From: Escherichia coli
GTDB taxonomy: Bacteria; Pseudomonadota; Gammaproteobacteria; Enterobacterales; Enterobacteriaceae
Direction: 5' to 3' (one strand)
Assembly: GCF_011045215.1 (NCBI RefSeq)
Contig: NZ_CP049201.1
Length of the DNA stretch: 64,000 nucleotides
How positions within the stretch are numbered: the first letter of the stretch is position 1; every line of letters begins with the position of its first letter. The position numbers and the translations under genes are program-made. The notes below the pieces were generated by a model. It worked only from the letters and a program-made list of their open reading frames with translations, did no database searches and was not told the origin of the DNA. Below, piece by piece: positions 26,219 through 56,465 of this stretch.

Positions 26219-26620
26219 ATGACATGGAATCCGTTGGCGCTGGCGACGGCGCTGCAAACTGTACCTGAACAAAATATTGATGTAACAAATAGCGATAACG
26301 CATTAATTATTAAAATGAATGATTATGGCGATTTGCAAATCAATATTCTTTTTACTTCCCGCCAAATGATTATCGAAACCTTTATTTGTCCGGTAAGTAG
26401 TATCAGCAATCCAGATGAATTTAATACCTTCTTATTAAGAAATCAGAAGATGATGCCGTTGTCATCGGTAGGAATCTCCAGCGTGCAACAGGAAGAGTAT
26501 TACATTGTTTTCGGGGCGTTATCGCTTAAATCTTCTCTTGAAGATATCCTGCTTGAGATAACCTCGCTGGTAGATAACGCATTGGATCTGGCTGAAATTA
26601 CAGAAGAATATTCACACTAA
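26219..26620 (+). CDS. yjfI: Uncharacterised protein YjfI (DUF2170)
   Basis: 133-aa ORF, first gene of the yjfIJKLMC cluster. Confidence 0.85.
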   Translation: MTWNPLALATALQTVPEQNIDVTNSDNALIIKMNDYGDLQINILFTSRQMIIETFICPVSSISNPDEFNTFLLRNQKMMPLSSVGISSVQQEEYYIVFGALSLKSSLEDILLEITSLVDNALDLAEITEEYSH

Positions 26621-41604: not shown

Positions 41605-42151
<547 letters not shown>

Positions 42152-42180
42152 TCGGTCACGGTCCATTAATACGACTTTGA

Positions 42181-42642
<462 letters not shown>

Positions 42643-42663
42643 TTCGTTATTCAACGAGACGTA

Positions 42664-42695
42664 AAAACGCCGACCACTGGTCGGCGTTTTGCTTT
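42664..42695. terminator. Bidirectional intrinsic terminator between rplI and convergent yjfZ
   Basis: Stem CGCCGACCA ... TGGTCGGCG flanked by A-tract (AAAAA) on one side and T-tract (TTTTGCTTTCTATTTTT) on the other. Confidence 0.8.
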
Positions 42696-42712
42696 CTATT
42701 TTTCGTCAGGCA

Positions 42713-43507
42713 TTAATTTCGCAAGTAGATCCATTCACCATTCTCTTGTGTCCATAAGTCAGGATGGTTTGCTGGCGTTAGATACATATGAGCGCAACTG
42801 ATGTCTCGCTCCTGCGGCACTCGCTCAAAACCCAAACCCGAGTAGATTGCTGCTGAACTTGATAAGGAACGCAGACCAATTTTCAAATCATGGGGTAAAT
42901 CAGAATACGCGTTTAGCAATGCAGCAATGATGAATCCGAGGGCATTAGAAACGCCTGTAACAGTGCGAAGTTGGTCGATATAAAGATCGATTGTTGGTAG
43001 TTCAGATGACCAGCAATTAGGCATTTGGGCAGGAAGGGTTACAACGTATCCTATCGTTTGGCCGGTATAGTCTGGAGTACCATAACCAGGTCCCAAAACA
43101 ACCTCGTGTATTGTGTATCTACTGTTGGGTTCGAAGGATTCGACATCTTGCAATAAATATTTCAGTTCTGCGGTTAACCGCGCACCCGCGTAAGCTTTAT
43201 TGTATTTCTGGGCGTGAATATTATCTAATGTAGCTTCATGGTTCCATCCAAAAGAATTATCACCATTCATTGTTATTCCATCGTAAGCATTACACCTCGT
43301 CGCTAACTTATTGAATGCTTGCCAGTCTGAGAGATCTAGTTTGTGGATCTCAACAGTACGTCTGCCATCGCAATTATGATCTCTTCCACGATTTGAAAGT
43401 AATGTAGCGCGTGCGTATTGATGAAATTTTAATTTTACTGGTTTGTCGGTGGACGAAAAACGAGATAAATATGCAGGAAATGAATAAATAGTGGTTGGTA
43501 ATGTCAT
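42713..43507 (-). CDS. yjfZ: Uncharacterised protein YjfZ (DUF2686)
   Basis: 264-aa ORF in AT-rich DNA; recognised as YjfZ; no informative motifs. Confidence 0.85.
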   Translation of the reverse strand: MTLPTTIYSFPAYLSRFSSTDKPVKLKFHQYARATLLSNRGRDHNCDGRRTVEIHKLDLSDWQAFNKLATRCNAYDGITMNGDNSFGWNHEATLDNIHAQKYNKAYAGARLTAELKYLLQDVESFEPNSRYTIHEVVLGPGYGTPDYTGQTIGYVVTLPAQMPNCWSSELPTIDLYIDQLRTVTGVSNALGFIIAALLNAYSDLPHDLKIGLRSLSSSAAIYSGLGFERVPQERDISCAHMYLTPANHPDLWTQENGEWIYLRN

Positions 43508-43728
43508 TGTAATGTTACCTGTTTAATATTTTTACAAATATCGCAGCTGAATGTTCAAAGAAAAAGAATTGATATTAATAAAAATAAGTTTGTTTTCTGA
43601 AGTGGTGAAAATAGCGGATGGTGAAAGATATTAATATCAAAAATCGCTCATTATGGATATAACGATGCACCAGGGGAGAAAATGACTTCCACGCCTTACA
43701 CCGTACATTCTTGTTGTGCGGTATGTAA

Positions 43729-44078
43729 TTATTCTACGCTGTCGGTATTGGTGTATTCGTTAATCAGCAGGTTAACCAGCCACAAAAAGCCATTGAGAAA
43801 ATTATTGATTTTACATGGAATTATTATATTGCCAATCCTTGGTTTTTAAAAATTGTGCATAGTGAAAATCAAAGTAAAGGTGTGCATTATGCAAAATCAC
43901 AGCGTCTCTTAGAAATTACCCATGCGCACTTGCAGTTAATGGAATCCTTATTGGATGAAGGGAAGAAACACAATATTTTTAAGCCAGATATCGACCCATT
44001 TCAGGTGAATATTAATATTGCTGCGCTTGGGGGATATTATTTGATCAACCAGCATACGCTTGGCCTGGTTTATCCGGT
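43729..44078 (+). pseudogene. ytfA: TetR-family regulator fragment (C-terminal ligand-binding region only), apparently interrupted at its 3' end by the IS element
   Basis: Open frame from 43729 (GTG 43855 is the first listed start) encodes ...[30 protein letters not shown]...[16 protein letters not shown]..., resembling a TetR C-terminal domain; no N-terminal HTH is encoded upstream; from about 44080 the frame reads antisense through IS sequence. Confidence 0.6.
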
Positions 44079-44130
44079 GCGCCGTAAAACCCCGTCCTTC
44101 AGGGCGGGGATATACGGCGCGGTTTTCCAC

Positions 44131-44558
44131 CTAACCAGGTGTTTGCTGTTGTTCAATGTATTGACGGATGGCGGATATTGGCGCACCTCCGCAGCTACTG
44201 GCAAAATAGCCAGGACTCCACAAAACGCCTTTGTAGTAATACCTGACTGCAATATCTGGTCGATCTCGTCGCAGTAACCTACCCGATACGCCTTTGAGGC
44301 TGTTTACCAGACTGGATATCGCCAGTTTGGGAGGATAGTTAATTAACAAACGTGATCTGGTTCGCCATCCATTTCAACCAGTTCAGCTTCAAAATCAGCA
44401 CATACCTTTGAAAAGTAAGTGCGTAGTTTTTCTGTCGCGTCATGGTCAAAAATCTGGCGTCGGTATCTGGTGACAAAGACCAGGTGAACATGCATCAGGA
44501 AAACACAATGCCTTCCACGCCGGATATCGGTTTCTTTTTTCACAGACCAAAGTATCAT
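44131..44558 (-). pseudogene. tnpA: IS200/IS605 TnpA (Y1 HUH transposase), disrupted by a frameshift
   Basis: Two adjacent ORFs in different frames (44343..44558 and 44131..44349) together give a ~143-aa TnpA-like protein: ...HCVFLMHVHLVFVTRYRRQIF...EPDHV / [26 protein letters not shown]...[26 protein letters not shown]; the break is inside the HUH motif. Confidence 0.8.
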
Positions 44559-44565
44559 TTGGCCT

Positions 44566-45774
44566 GTGAAACGACTACAGGCATTTAAATTCCAGTTAAG
44601 ACCCGGTGGTCAACAGGAGCGTGAAATGAGGCGCTTCGCAGGCGCATGTCGTTTCGTTTTCAATCGTGCTCTGGCACGTCAGAATGAGAATCATGAGGCC
44701 GGTAATAAATACATCCCTTACGGGAAAATGGCTTCCTGGCTGGTTGAGTGGAAAAATGCCACTGAAACGCAATGGCTTAAAGATGCCCCGTCACAGCCAT
44801 TGCAACAGTCACTGAAAGACCTTGAGCGGGCTTACAAAAACTTCTTCCGGAAGCGGGCTGCTTTTCCCCGATTCAAAAAGCGGGGACAGAATGATGCATT
44901 CCGCTACCCGCAGGGCGTTAAGCTCGATCAGGAAAACAGTCGTATTTTTCTGCCGAAACTTGGCTGGATGCGCTACCGGAATAGCCGTCAGGTCACGGGT
45001 GTTGTGAAAAATGTCACTGTCAGCCAGTCCTGCGGTAAGTGGTACATCAGTATTCAGACTGAAAATGAAGTATCAACTCCGGTTCACCCTTCAGCATTAA
45101 TGGTCGGACTGGATGCTGGCGTGGCTAAACTCGCCACGCTGTCAGATGGCACAGTCTTTGGGCCTGTAAACAGTTTTCAGAAAAACCAGAAGACGCTGGC
45201 GAGACTTCAGCGACAGTTAAGCCGCAAGGTCAAATTCAGCAACAACTGGCAGAAGCAGAAACGCAAAATACAGCGACTGCATTCCTGTATCGCAAATATC
45301 CGCAGGGACTACCTTCACAAAGTCACAACGACCGTCAGCAAAAACCACGCAATGATAGTCATTGAGGATTTGAAGGTCAGCAACATGTCAAAGTCAGCAG
45401 CGGGTACGGTCAGCCAGCCGGGGCGCAATGTCCGGGCAAAATCAGGTTTAAACCGTTCGATACTGGATCAGAGCTGGTATGAAATGCGCCGCCAGCTTGA
45501 GTACAAGCAGCTCTGGCGTGGCGGTCAGGTGCTTGCTGTTCCGCCAGCGTACACAAGCCAGCGTTGCGCGTGCTGTGGTCATACAGCGAAAGAAAATCGC
45601 CTGTCACAAAGTAAATTCAGATGCCAGGCATGTGGATATACAGCGAACGCTGATGTAAATGGCGCTCGTAACATTTTAGCGGCGGGGCACGCCGTTCTTG
45701 CCTGTGGAGAGATGGTGCAGTCAGGCCGCCCGTTGAAGCAGGAACCCACCGAAATGATTCAGGCGACAGCCTGA
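44566..45774 (+). CDS. tnpB: TnpB (OrfB) of an IS200/IS605-family element; RuvC-like RNA-guided endonuclease family
   Basis: 402-aa ORF from GTG 44566; N-terminus [13 protein letters not shown]...[12 protein letters not shown] typical of TnpB; RuvC-I (VGLDAGV), RuvC-II (IVIEDLKV), zinc finger (CACCGH...CQACGY) and RuvC-III ([10 protein letters not shown]) all present; an alternative ATG at 44626 with an AGGAG SD would give 382 aa. Confidence 0.9.
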
Positions 45775-45908
45775 ACGTAGCAGGGATCCACGTCCTTCAG
45801 GGCGTGGAGGATGTCAACACATCAGTATGGTTTCACCCCAGGCACTGGAAGCCAGACGTAAGGTCATCAAAGAGACAATCCTTAGCTGGCTTTTGGTTGA
45901 CCCTTCAT

Positions 45909-46547
45909 CTACCGCGCACGAATAAAACTGCCATCCGGCTGGCGGGTGAACAGGACCTGTTGATTATTCCCCGTATCAATGGTTAAGCCCGTCACCACGC
46001 CGCTGGCGTTCTGGCGGATTTTCACCATCTGCCCGTTTTGCAAATTACTCAGCGGCTTACCCGCGCCTTCTACCTGCGCCATTGCATAGACATCGGTAGC
46101 GGGCAGTCCGTGGTCGCGGAACAGCTGCGCCATCGTTTTACCGGGTTCGACACGGTAAGAGCGCCATTGATTATCAATTCCGCTATCTGGCTGGAATGGT
46201 TGCGTTTGGGTAGTTTGCGGCTGTTCTTCTGGCTGGCCTTCCTGTATAGGTTCTGGAGCGACCGGAGCCACCTGATCAGGATCATTTTGTGGTGTGACTA
46301 ATTGCGCCCGCAGCTGTTCTTCTGTCGGCGGTTGTGATTGTGACTGAATATCTAACTGCGCTTCACGCGTCACCACCGGCGCGTTGAGCGTATCATCAGA
46401 TGGAAGCAGAAATCCGACCACCAATACAATGGCGGCAATAATGATCCCCCGACGATGCATCGGCGGCAGCGGGTCCATGAAGCGAAAATTGTCCGGCGCG
46501 TGCCAGACTTTCTCCAGGGTTGGTTTTAGTTCAAAGCGCCCGGGCAT
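45909..46547 (-). CDS. ytfB: Cell-division protein YtfB (OapA/LysM-like domain)
   Basis: 212 aa from [21 protein letters not shown]; TM anchor, Pro/Gln-rich linker, C-terminal OapA domain. Confidence 0.88.
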
Positions 46548-46765
46548 GGTTTCCTCCTGCTCCGCGTCTTGTTCCTCAATCATAGCCTATGAATAAGCTA
46601 ACGCTATGATGTCCGTGGTAAACCCGCCTTTATTATATTCATACGGGATATTGCTATTGTTTCTTTTTCCCCGTGATTTGTCATCATTCCCGCGACAAAG
46701 TTTTACCCAAAGAAGTGTGGCTGATATGCTGCCCGCTACTTTTATACCCTAAGAAAGGAAATACG

Positions 46766-55526: not shown

Positions 55527-56465
55527 ATGTTACCCAGGATCAGACACAATAATTTTATTGGTGCGGTGGAGTTATTTGTAAAATCATCGCATACAAAAAC
55601 ACATTTAAACAATTTTTTAAATAATATTCAGCATGCATTTAAGAAAAAAGATTGGATTTCGAATTATGATTGCCTGTTAACTTTGCGGGAGTTCTTTCGT
55701 TGCGCAACTCAGATTGATAAAGATAGTTATCAAGTGCTTTCATCAAAAAATGGAACTGTTAACGCTATGGATAAGTTTCTTATCAGTTTCAGCCTTAAAG
55801 ATAACGGTGCCGAATATACAATGACATTGCGAGGCAGTGGATTTGAATACGAAGAAATCCCCATAACAATAAATGAGTATAACTCATTCATGGATTTCAA
55901 AAACCGTGAATTTCCGTTAGAACAAAACAGACGATTGTATGCCTGGGATATTCTGCAGAAAAAACAGTCTGACATACCGAAAAGGATTAAAGGTTATATT
56001 CACCAGGCGATTGGTGACGTGTCTTTAGGTTATGCCTTATTGGAGGATATAGTAAGCAAATTAAAACGGGGTAAATTTGAACTCCAAATACCAGCAGGTG
56101 GAATTAAAGAATGCGATGGATGGTATATTTACGAAAAAATAATTGATGATAATTTTGCCATAGTCATAGAATCTTTGGGCTTTGCGCTTAAAATCTATGG
56201 AGGGGATGAACGTTTTCGTAATGGTTCCTCTGTTGTTTTGGAGGATGAAGATTACTCTCTTATTTATAATTTTCTGGTTAATGCAGGTTGCCAACAAGTC
56301 GGATTAGCCGAACAAGTGGATGCGATAGTAAGTGCGAATCTGGCCGCAGATAGTGATATTACCAAAGAAAAGATTTGCGAGAAATATAAATCGACCATTG
56401 AGGCGTTTAAAAAAGAGCAACTAGCGTTACCAGTATTAGTTCGGTGTAAGAACTCAGAGACTTAA
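55527..56465 (+). CDS. ytfI: Uncharacterised protein YtfI
   Basis: 312-aa ORF in strongly AT-rich DNA; recognised as YtfI; no known domain. Confidence 0.8.
   Translation: MLPRIRHNNFIGAVELFVKSSHTKTHLNNFLNNIQHAFKKKDWISNYDCLLTLREFFRCATQIDKDSYQVLSSKNGTVNAMDKFLISFSLKDNGAEYTMTLRGSGFEYEEIPITINEYNSFMDFKNREFPLEQNRRLYAWDILQKKQSDIPKRIKGYIHQAIGDVSLGYALLEDIVSKLKRGKFELQIPAGGIKECDGWYIYEKIIDDNFAIVIESLGFALKIYGGDERFRNGSSVVLEDEDYSLIYNFLVNAGCQQVGLAEQVDAIVSANLAADSDITKEKICEKYKSTIEAFKKEQLALPVLVRCKNSET

Follow-up and report, generated by a model that had tools for sequence, protein, structure and literature searches.

When a short block of a bacterial chromosome is markedly richer in A+T than its flanks, does it mark one piece of foreign DNA? 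This question is raised by positions 42713-44080 of a 64,000-nucleotide stretch of the Escherichia coli chromosome (NCBI RefSeq assembly GCF_011045215.1, contig NZ_CP049201.1), hereafter the window. The genes around the block follow in the order rpsF-priB-rpsR-rplI (rplI at 42193-42642, + strand), yjfZ, an AT-rich spacer, the remnant of a TetR regulator gene (ytfA), an insertion sequence (IS) of the IS200/IS605 family, ytfB, fklB and cycA. The locus, its genes, the pseudogene status of ytfA and the IS are already annotated and known; in K-12, RefSeq lists ytfA as a TetR/AcrR pseudogene without its N-terminus. A sequence-only reading of the window took yjfZ and ytfA together as an old, horizontally acquired and probably H-NS-silenced islet on which the IS had landed. 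On the evidence below, the 1.37-kb AT-rich block is very probably not a single islet, but a composite deletion scar at a hypervariable spot of the chromosome, later hit by IS609.

Base composition and gene content

The contrast in composition on which the sequence-only reading was built is borne out. The G+C content of 42713-44080 is 0.393 against a window mean of 0.516 (SD 0.038 among 1368-bp windows), a value as low as which is found in just 0.9% of 1368-bp windows, and the sole comparable region lies at about 54.6-56.8 kb. Within the segment, G+C is 0.420 in the yjfZ coding sequence, 0.339 in the spacer (43508-43778) and 0.362 in the TetR remnant (43779-44068), compared with 0.496 in rplI, 0.504 in IS609 and 0.551 in ytfB. 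The codon usage of yjfZ is also atypical and unlike that of its neighbours: its G+C at third codon positions (GC3), 0.352, is the second lowest of the window (mean 0.569, SD 0.077, 53 long open reading frames (ORFs)), and its codon-usage distance B is 0.558 (mean 0.358).

The gene content had been read correctly as well. The segment holds an intact yjfZ of 264 codons (42713-43507, - strand), whose product matches DUF2686 (PF10887) at 515 bits against a cut-off of 25 (E 4e-155), and a regulator remnant, in which an ORF from 43855 carries the C-terminal domain TetR_C_29 alone (E 4.4e-15), with no helix-turn-helix (HTH) or TetR_N domain (PF00440). The borders need adjustment: the left end of the IS is at 44074 rather than about 44080, and the regulator remnant resumes past the IS at 45818-45925. 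An Rfam scan of 42000-46600 returned nothing over the gathering score, and a promoter scan of the segment performed no better than on shuffled sequence.

Haplotypes, deletions and the ancestry of ytfA

Comparison with 5,426 complete E. coli genomes, a collection from which Shigella was left out, shows that the DNA from the rplI terminator to ytfB comes in four main arrangements. The window is at best 99.1-99.2% identical to any of these genomes, at the locus as well as over 12 kb of neighbouring core genes. In T1 (e.g. VR50), which lacks yjfZ, three tripartite ATP-independent periplasmic (TRAP) transporter genes are followed by an operon and a divergent gene for a full-length TetR regulator of 215 aa. 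The operon genes, all on the minus strand, encode a FAD-dependent oxidoreductase, a CoA-transferase, an enoyl-CoA hydratase, a sugar-phosphate isomerase/epimerase-like TIM barrel and a short-chain dehydrogenase/reductase (SDR). T2 consists of yjfZ, a major facilitator superfamily (MFS) transporter gene, the operon and the full TetR gene. In T3, the arrangement of K-12, O157:H7 and the window, yjfZ is followed directly by the truncated TetR gene. T4 has an HTH gene and a gene for a HipA-family toxin where yjfZ would be, then the MFS gene and the operon. Haplotype counts, which are coverage-based estimates (at least 80% coverage) and not per-genome typing, place T3 in 2,222 genomes, 1,742 of them with IS609, and T2 in about 300; the MFS gene is found in 1,686 genomes, which gives about 1,390 for T4, and the TRAP cassette in 1,446. 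Any match to yjfZ is present in 2,538 genomes (47%), 2,523 of which hold at least 80% of the gene. Salmonella still has the catabolic operon, as do about 58% of the complete E. coli genomes.

All haplotypes part between 42695 and 42696 (BLAST and aligned junctions of T1, T2, T4 and the window). This point lies within the T-tail of the intrinsic rplI terminator (42664-42700, + strand, with the hairpin at 42664-42690, from a terminator scan), the left edge of the variable slot. Homology between T2 and T4 resumes 58 bp past the position equivalent to 43675, near an apparent MFS terminator hairpin, and the slot cassettes, of 1,037 bp for yjfZ and 2,208 bp for the hipBA-like pair, lie between the two terminators. 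By the same T2/T4 comparison, the retained part of the yjfZ cassette spans 42696-43675 (- strand), its last 58 bp being lost here in the first of the two deletions described next. No integrase or tRNA gene lies between rplI and ytfB in any haplotype, and no direct repeats were seen in the printed junction sequences, inspected without a repeat-finding tool. The slot occupant in Salmonella is an EamA gene, a remnant of which was looked for in the E. coli slot and not found. The locus is a hypervariable spot of the Escherichia chromosome. Of the two T4 strains looked at (E. coli CUVET21-PYO5 and 30345_1#279), one has a frameshift in the HipA gene of the pair.

Two deletion junctions lie between yjfZ and ytfA in the window. 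The AT-rich region upstream of yjfZ (43508-43675) is homologous to the K-12 yjfZ/ytfA spacer. In comparison with T2, homology on the yjfZ side stops at 43675, and from about 43780 the sequence is that of TetR codon 83 onward. The intervening 43671-43775 (- strand) matches the 5' part of the SDR gene, a '3-ketoacyl-ACP reductase' gene, at 83%, and its translation aligns to SDR residues 29-63 with in-frame stops. Deletion 1, of about 7.3 kb, extends from upstream of yjfZ into the SDR gene (junction at about 43675). Deletion 2, of 545 bp, took out TetR codons 1-82 together with the divergent promoter and the beginning of the SDR gene (junction 43776-43783), and its ends share an 8-bp microhomology, TCCGCCAC, in the intact sequence. 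The identical relic and junctions are present in K-12, O157, TB06052 and 2013C_3963, the four other T3 strains that were readable, indicating that the two deletions were single ancestral events.

In enterotoxigenic E. coli H10407, a CRP peak from chromatin immunoprecipitation sequencing, with the site TGTGATCACTATCGCA, has been reported between the SDR-side gene and ytfA (PMC4287617). Deletion 2 eliminated this CRP-bound control region of the operon, and the K-12 pseudogene ytfA is explained as the end of a repressor gene that belonged to a catabolic operon under CRP control. The window shares its position, its TetR regulator and the left boundary at the rplI terminator with the intact-operon loci (T1, T2 and Salmonella), whereas all six genes of the operon are gone from it, as are the HTH of TetR and the divergent promoter with its CRP site. 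The composition of the intact islands is far from uniform: G+C is 0.50-0.55 in the enzyme genes, 0.47 in the MFS gene, 0.41-0.44 in the TRAP genes, 0.42 in yjfZ, 0.395 in the TetR gene, 0.373 in the SDR-TetR spacer and 33% in the yjfZ-MFS spacer. The segment in the window therefore looks uniformly AT-rich because the loss of a GC-normal core joined two AT-rich ends.

The ytfA gene is an ancestral regulator stump and not foreign DNA. With codons 1-82 (the HTH) and the promoter deleted, the remainder of the 215-codon TetR/AcrR gene is split by IS609 into a 5' piece (codons 83-180, 43780-44073, + strand), recognised by TetR_C_29 and by alignment to the intact gene, and a 3' piece (codons 181-215 and the stop, 45818-45925, + strand), which overlaps the 3' end of the convergent ytfB and is annotated as the same fragment by RefSeq in the closest genome. 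When the IS is removed in silico, codons 83-215 are open up to the natural stop, and the remnant retains about 97% nucleotide identity to intact alleles. Full TetR orthologues are 87-88% identical across Salmonella enterica and Citrobacter and 81-84% identical in Lelliottia, Leminorella and Entomohabitans. The Salmonella locus is fully syntenic (rplI, EamA transporter, MFS, the same five enzymes, TetR, ytfB, fklB, cycA), and its TetR gene and spacer have 41% and 39% G+C between flanks of about 55%, showing that low G+C is a conserved property of this gene and not a sign of recent transfer. Between E. coli T2 and Salmonella, protein identity is 93% for the SDR, 91% for the CoA-transferase, 89% for both the enoyl-CoA hydratase and the TIM-barrel isomerase, 86.5% for TetR, 78% for the FAD-oxidoreductase and 50% for the MFS transporter; the flanking genes ytfB and rplI stand at 84% and 96%. 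A published list also counts ytfA among the genes that vary within E. coli and records it in E. albertii and E. fergusonii (PMC6790063). One half of the AT-rich block thus consists of an ancestral regulator with low G+C in all the genera compared, which calls for caution when foreign islets are called from composition.

The history that best fits these data may be outlined as follows. The ancestral layout, as judged from Salmonella synteny, would have been rplI, a small cassette, a transporter gene with those for the FAD-oxidoreductase, CoA-transferase, enoyl-CoA hydratase, TIM-barrel isomerase and SDR (- strand), the divergent ytfA and then ytfB. The enzyme genes of this unit would have had 50-55% G+C, its AT-rich ends being formed by the cassette with the transporter gene and, at the opposite end, by the regulatory spacer with the TetR gene. 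The slot after the rplI terminator would have taken alternative cassettes in Escherichia, the 1-kb yjfZ cassette among them. In the common lineage of K-12, O157 and the window, the deletions of about 7.3 kb and 545 bp would then have stripped away the GC-normal core, the promoter and the TetR DNA-binding domain, so uniting the two AT-rich ends. IS609, moving as single-stranded DNA, would later have entered the dead remnant of the regulator on the 3' side of a TTAT, at no cost. Both the order of these events and the neutrality of the IS609 insertion are inferred.

Several observations weigh against so simple a path. From the SDR gene of every intact-operon strain compared, the SDR relic has diverged by 17%, against about 3% for the DNA on either side of it. 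A direct passage from T2 to T3 by two deletions is inexact. Perhaps the island that was lost was itself a deeply divergent allele, or perhaps recombination homogenised the flanks. About 70 genomes fall outside all four types, one of them with an IS1-associated rearrangement, and the frequencies of the types carry the uncertainty of coverage-based counting. Moreover, the placing of the deletions before the IS rests on finding no IS609 in an intact TetR gene among evenly sampled ranked rows, a sample that is not exhaustive.

The alternative put forward by the sequence-only reading, that yjfZ and ytfA are one old H-NS-silenced islet acquired horizontally and used by the IS as a landing pad, would account for the low G+C and GC3 throughout the segment, for its presence as a unit in just the 2,222 T3 genomes, for an H-NS site in the spacer (PMC3946193) and for a density of TTAT targets about twice that of the window. 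It is unlikely, however, given that the ytfA orthologue of Salmonella is syntenic, 87% identical and equally AT-rich, that an operon of about 8 kb stands between yjfZ and ytfA in about 300 genomes and that about 2,800 genomes have ytfA without yjfZ. In the window, too, an SDR relic and two deletion junctions separate the two genes, and the borders show neither an integrase nor a tRNA nor, on inspection, flanking repeats. It was the loss of about 7.9 kb of operon with normal G+C, rather than an acquisition, that brought yjfZ and ytfA together. The islet claim is supported for yjfZ, in view of its composition and codon usage, its occurrence in 2,538 of 5,426 genomes, the lack of homologues outside Escherichia in the searches described below, and the alternative cassettes in its slot; it is not supported for ytfA. 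The pattern of presence and absence divides in the same way, yjfZ being patchy and genus-restricted and ytfA having orthologues in sister genera.

Two further alternatives address the halves of the segment separately. AT-biased mutation of once GC-normal DNA after loss of function would agree with the pseudogene state of ytfA and with the stop codons and 17% divergence of the SDR relic. Nevertheless, the G+C content of the intact TetR gene is already down at 39.5% (E. coli) and 41% (Salmonella), purifying selection acts on an intact yjfZ, and the differences in the SDR relic run both ways rather than from GC to AT alone (by eye, uncounted). That the remnant still reads open over codons 83-215 without the IS, at about 97% identity to intact alleles, also argues against such decay, which we consider hardly credible. 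It is likewise very unlikely that yjfZ is a chance long ORF in AT-rich silenced DNA. Such a view could draw on its having no known function and no homologues beyond the genus, on searches of NCBIfam, PADLOC and PHROGs that returned nothing for YjfZ, on its dispensability in 53% of genomes and on a low-confidence structure prediction. Yet 2,523 of its 2,538 carriers hold at least 80% of the gene, all eight alleles compared are intact full-length ORFs, a 264-codon ORF is unexpected by chance in stop-rich AT-rich DNA, and a paralogue, YjiC (276 aa), is 38% identical, with 56 positions invariant across the YjfZ/YjiC family. The ratio of nonsynonymous to synonymous divergence (dN/dS) is 0.07-0.34 in informative allele pairs, mostly 0.2-0.3, with dS up to 0.095; one pair reaches 0.73, with just 7 differing sites. 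The yjfZ gene is a real gene under moderate constraint and old within the species, as the deletion-scar reading has it.

The yjfZ cassette and the DUF2686 family

Relatives of YjfZ are confined to Escherichia in every search made. HMMER, run exhaustively against 1.84 billion representative proteins, recovered only fragments of YjfZ and of the paralogue YjiC, together with two chance matches. These two, large and weak, are repeat proteins hit through one short motif, one with a sorting domain of the type IX secretion system and the other with leucine-rich repeats of the BspA type. A word-indexed homologue search with YjfZ found E. coli sequences only and missed YjiC, and a scan of 100,044 species (one genome each) yielded only E. 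albertii, which has a protein about 60% identical to YjiC, and one contig of a 'Collinsella' metagenome-assembled genome (MAG). Across the 1.84 billion proteins and the 100,044 species genomes, no homologue of DUF2686 (YjfZ and YjiC) was found outside Escherichia. The 'Collinsella' contig, JAIJJM010000835.1 ('MAG: Collinsella sp.'), is 1,283 bp long and encodes YjfZ at 96% identity; it almost certainly got into the bin as contaminating E. coli DNA.

For the fold of the protein, a low-confidence model suggests, at about even odds, the GNAT superfamily, and an acyltransferase activity would be predicted from such a fold. A family-invariant stretch, I-D-x-Y-I-x-x-x-x-T-V-x-G-V-x-N-x-x-G-F-x-x-A-A-L-L-N-A, sits at the position of the GNAT CoA-pyrophosphate site. 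YjfZ differs from known members of the superfamily in its greater length (264 aa, of which about 50 at the N-terminus are poorly modelled) and in having no detectable sequence similarity to the Pfam GNAT families, none of which matched it even at E <= 10. This lack of similarity counts against the assignment, as do the following. The canonical motif Q/R-x-x-G-x-G/A is not clearly present, the invariant G185-x-x-N188-x-x-G191-F192 being merely reminiscent of GNAT motif A. The AlphaFold2 model has a predicted local distance difference test score of 34.7 from the single sequence, which is unusable, and a mean of 45 with a 13-sequence alignment, and Foldseek E-values for it are 0.015 at best. A sequence search of the PDB gave nothing at E < 0.2. 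The GNAT-fold lead is a first hypothesis for the uncharacterised family DUF2686. A broader proposal, which we put forward tentatively, is that yjfZ, like the hipBA-like toxin-antitoxin pair and others, is one of several interchangeable single-function cassettes taking turns in a slot prone to recombination within the rplI terminator T-tail, and that DUF2686 is an extremely divergent, genus-restricted branch of the GNAT fold, with no sequence relatives detectable elsewhere.

The K-12 yjfZ/ytfA spacer has been listed as a divergent spacer that binds RpoD holoenzyme and marked 'HNS', which denotes an in vitro site from genomic SELEX (systematic evolution of ligands by exponential enrichment) (Shimada et al. 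2014, PMC3946193, Table 1 row 95.37). The window spacer is 97.9% identical to that of K-12, which makes binding of H-NS plausible here too. A scan with the H-NS consensus motif was uninformative, and it speaks against a firmer statement that the binding was recorded in vitro and with K-12, another strain than that of the window. The yjfZ cassette resembles H-NS-bound xenogeneic islets in being an AT-rich, strain-variable and genus-restricted gene of unknown function with a published SELEX site in its spacer. The likeness stops at the cassette: the regulator half is ancestral, and no mobility genes or att-like repeats were found. On these grounds yjfZ behaves as an old accessory cassette, probably H-NS-bound, and may be silenced in vivo.

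Published work touches both members of the family. A transposon insertion in yjiC was reported in a biofilm-deficient mutant of atypical enteropathogenic E. coli (PMC4100040), and in 2024 YjfZ was put forward as a signature gene, conserved in E. coli/Shigella, for quantitative PCR assays of water quality (PMC11057252). The 'YjfZ' forward primer and probe of the latter paper encode TGRMLYR and TSALDEIYGG, which are peptides of YjiC and not of YjfZ, and the forward primer is not found in the window even when 3 mismatches are allowed. For its use as a marker it matters that yjfZ itself is absent from 53% of complete E. coli genomes.

IS609 in the ytfA remnant

The element in ytfA (44074-45817, + strand) was identified as IS609, of the IS200/IS605 family, from its Pfam domains, its ends and hairpins, and the RefSeq names of homologous copies, with 97-98% identity to those named IS609. 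In K-12, the empty site reads GGCCTGGTTTAT followed directly by CACATCAG; at precisely this junction the window carries an insert of 1,744 bp, without target duplication. Otherwise, the K-12 locus has the same genes, both deletion junctions and the SDR relic at 98% nucleotide identity, and differs in its empty TTAT site where the window holds IS609 with a frameshifted tnpA. At five of five independent IS609 sites (the ytfA remnant and copies in or beside a DUF3251 gene, yedK, ydcO and a DUF1869 gene), TTAT stands directly 5' of the left end, there is no duplication, and the right flanks differ; in the window this target tetranucleotide occupies 44070-44073 (+ strand), as located by comparison with the K-12 empty site. 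The right end is GATGTCAA at all five sites and finishes in TCAA. No terminal inverted repeats are present, and the subterminal hairpins have energies of -33.0 and -19.5 kcal/mol (RNA energy parameters).

These features liken IS609 to IS608 and other IS200/IS605 'peel and paste' elements, with which it shares a Y1 transposase and TnpB, subterminal hairpins, the absence of target duplication, a fixed 5' tetranucleotide and a right end in TCAA. It differs from IS608 in that its target is TTAT rather than TTAC, its tnpA and tnpB are divergent, and the window copy has an inactivated tnpA. The tnpA gene (44131-44558, - strand; Pfam Y1_Tnp over two ORFs) is frameshifted in the window and in the closest genome and is intact in the O157:H7 copy at the same site. 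The tnpB/insQ gene (44566-45774, + strand) encodes an intact TnpB of 402 aa with all three domains (OrfB_IS605, Cas12f1-like_TNB and HTH_OrfB). At four other IS609 loci examined, tnpA has stops or truncations.

The IS609 target lies on the + strand, which, judging from the upward trend of the cumulative GC skew and from the way the ribosomal (rpsF) operon is transcribed, we infer to be the lagging-strand template. A bias towards the lagging-strand template is established for the IS200/IS605 family and agrees with this placement. The description of the AT-rich segment as a landing site is weakly supported. TTAT occurs at 17.7/kb in the segment and at 8.6/kb in the window, so that AT-richness brings about a twofold excess of IS609 targets; the weightier point is that the gene which received IS609 was inactive already. 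Three other strains have IS609 at precisely this point, and deeply diverged yjfZ alleles occur among the IS-bearing strains, which suggests that IS609 in the ytfA remnant represents one old insertion. The empty site of K-12 could reflect either ancestry or precise excision.

Two other AT-rich genes were seen elsewhere in the window, both on the + strand. One, at 55527-56465, has 36% G+C and a GC3 of 0.327, the minimum of the window, and in matching E. coli genomes the stretch is annotated as ytfI, encoding a protein of unknown function. The other, a 133-codon ORF at 26219-26620 that follows rnr and rlmB and that we take from its position to be yjfI, has 38.6% G+C and a GC3 of 0.41, well under its neighbours.

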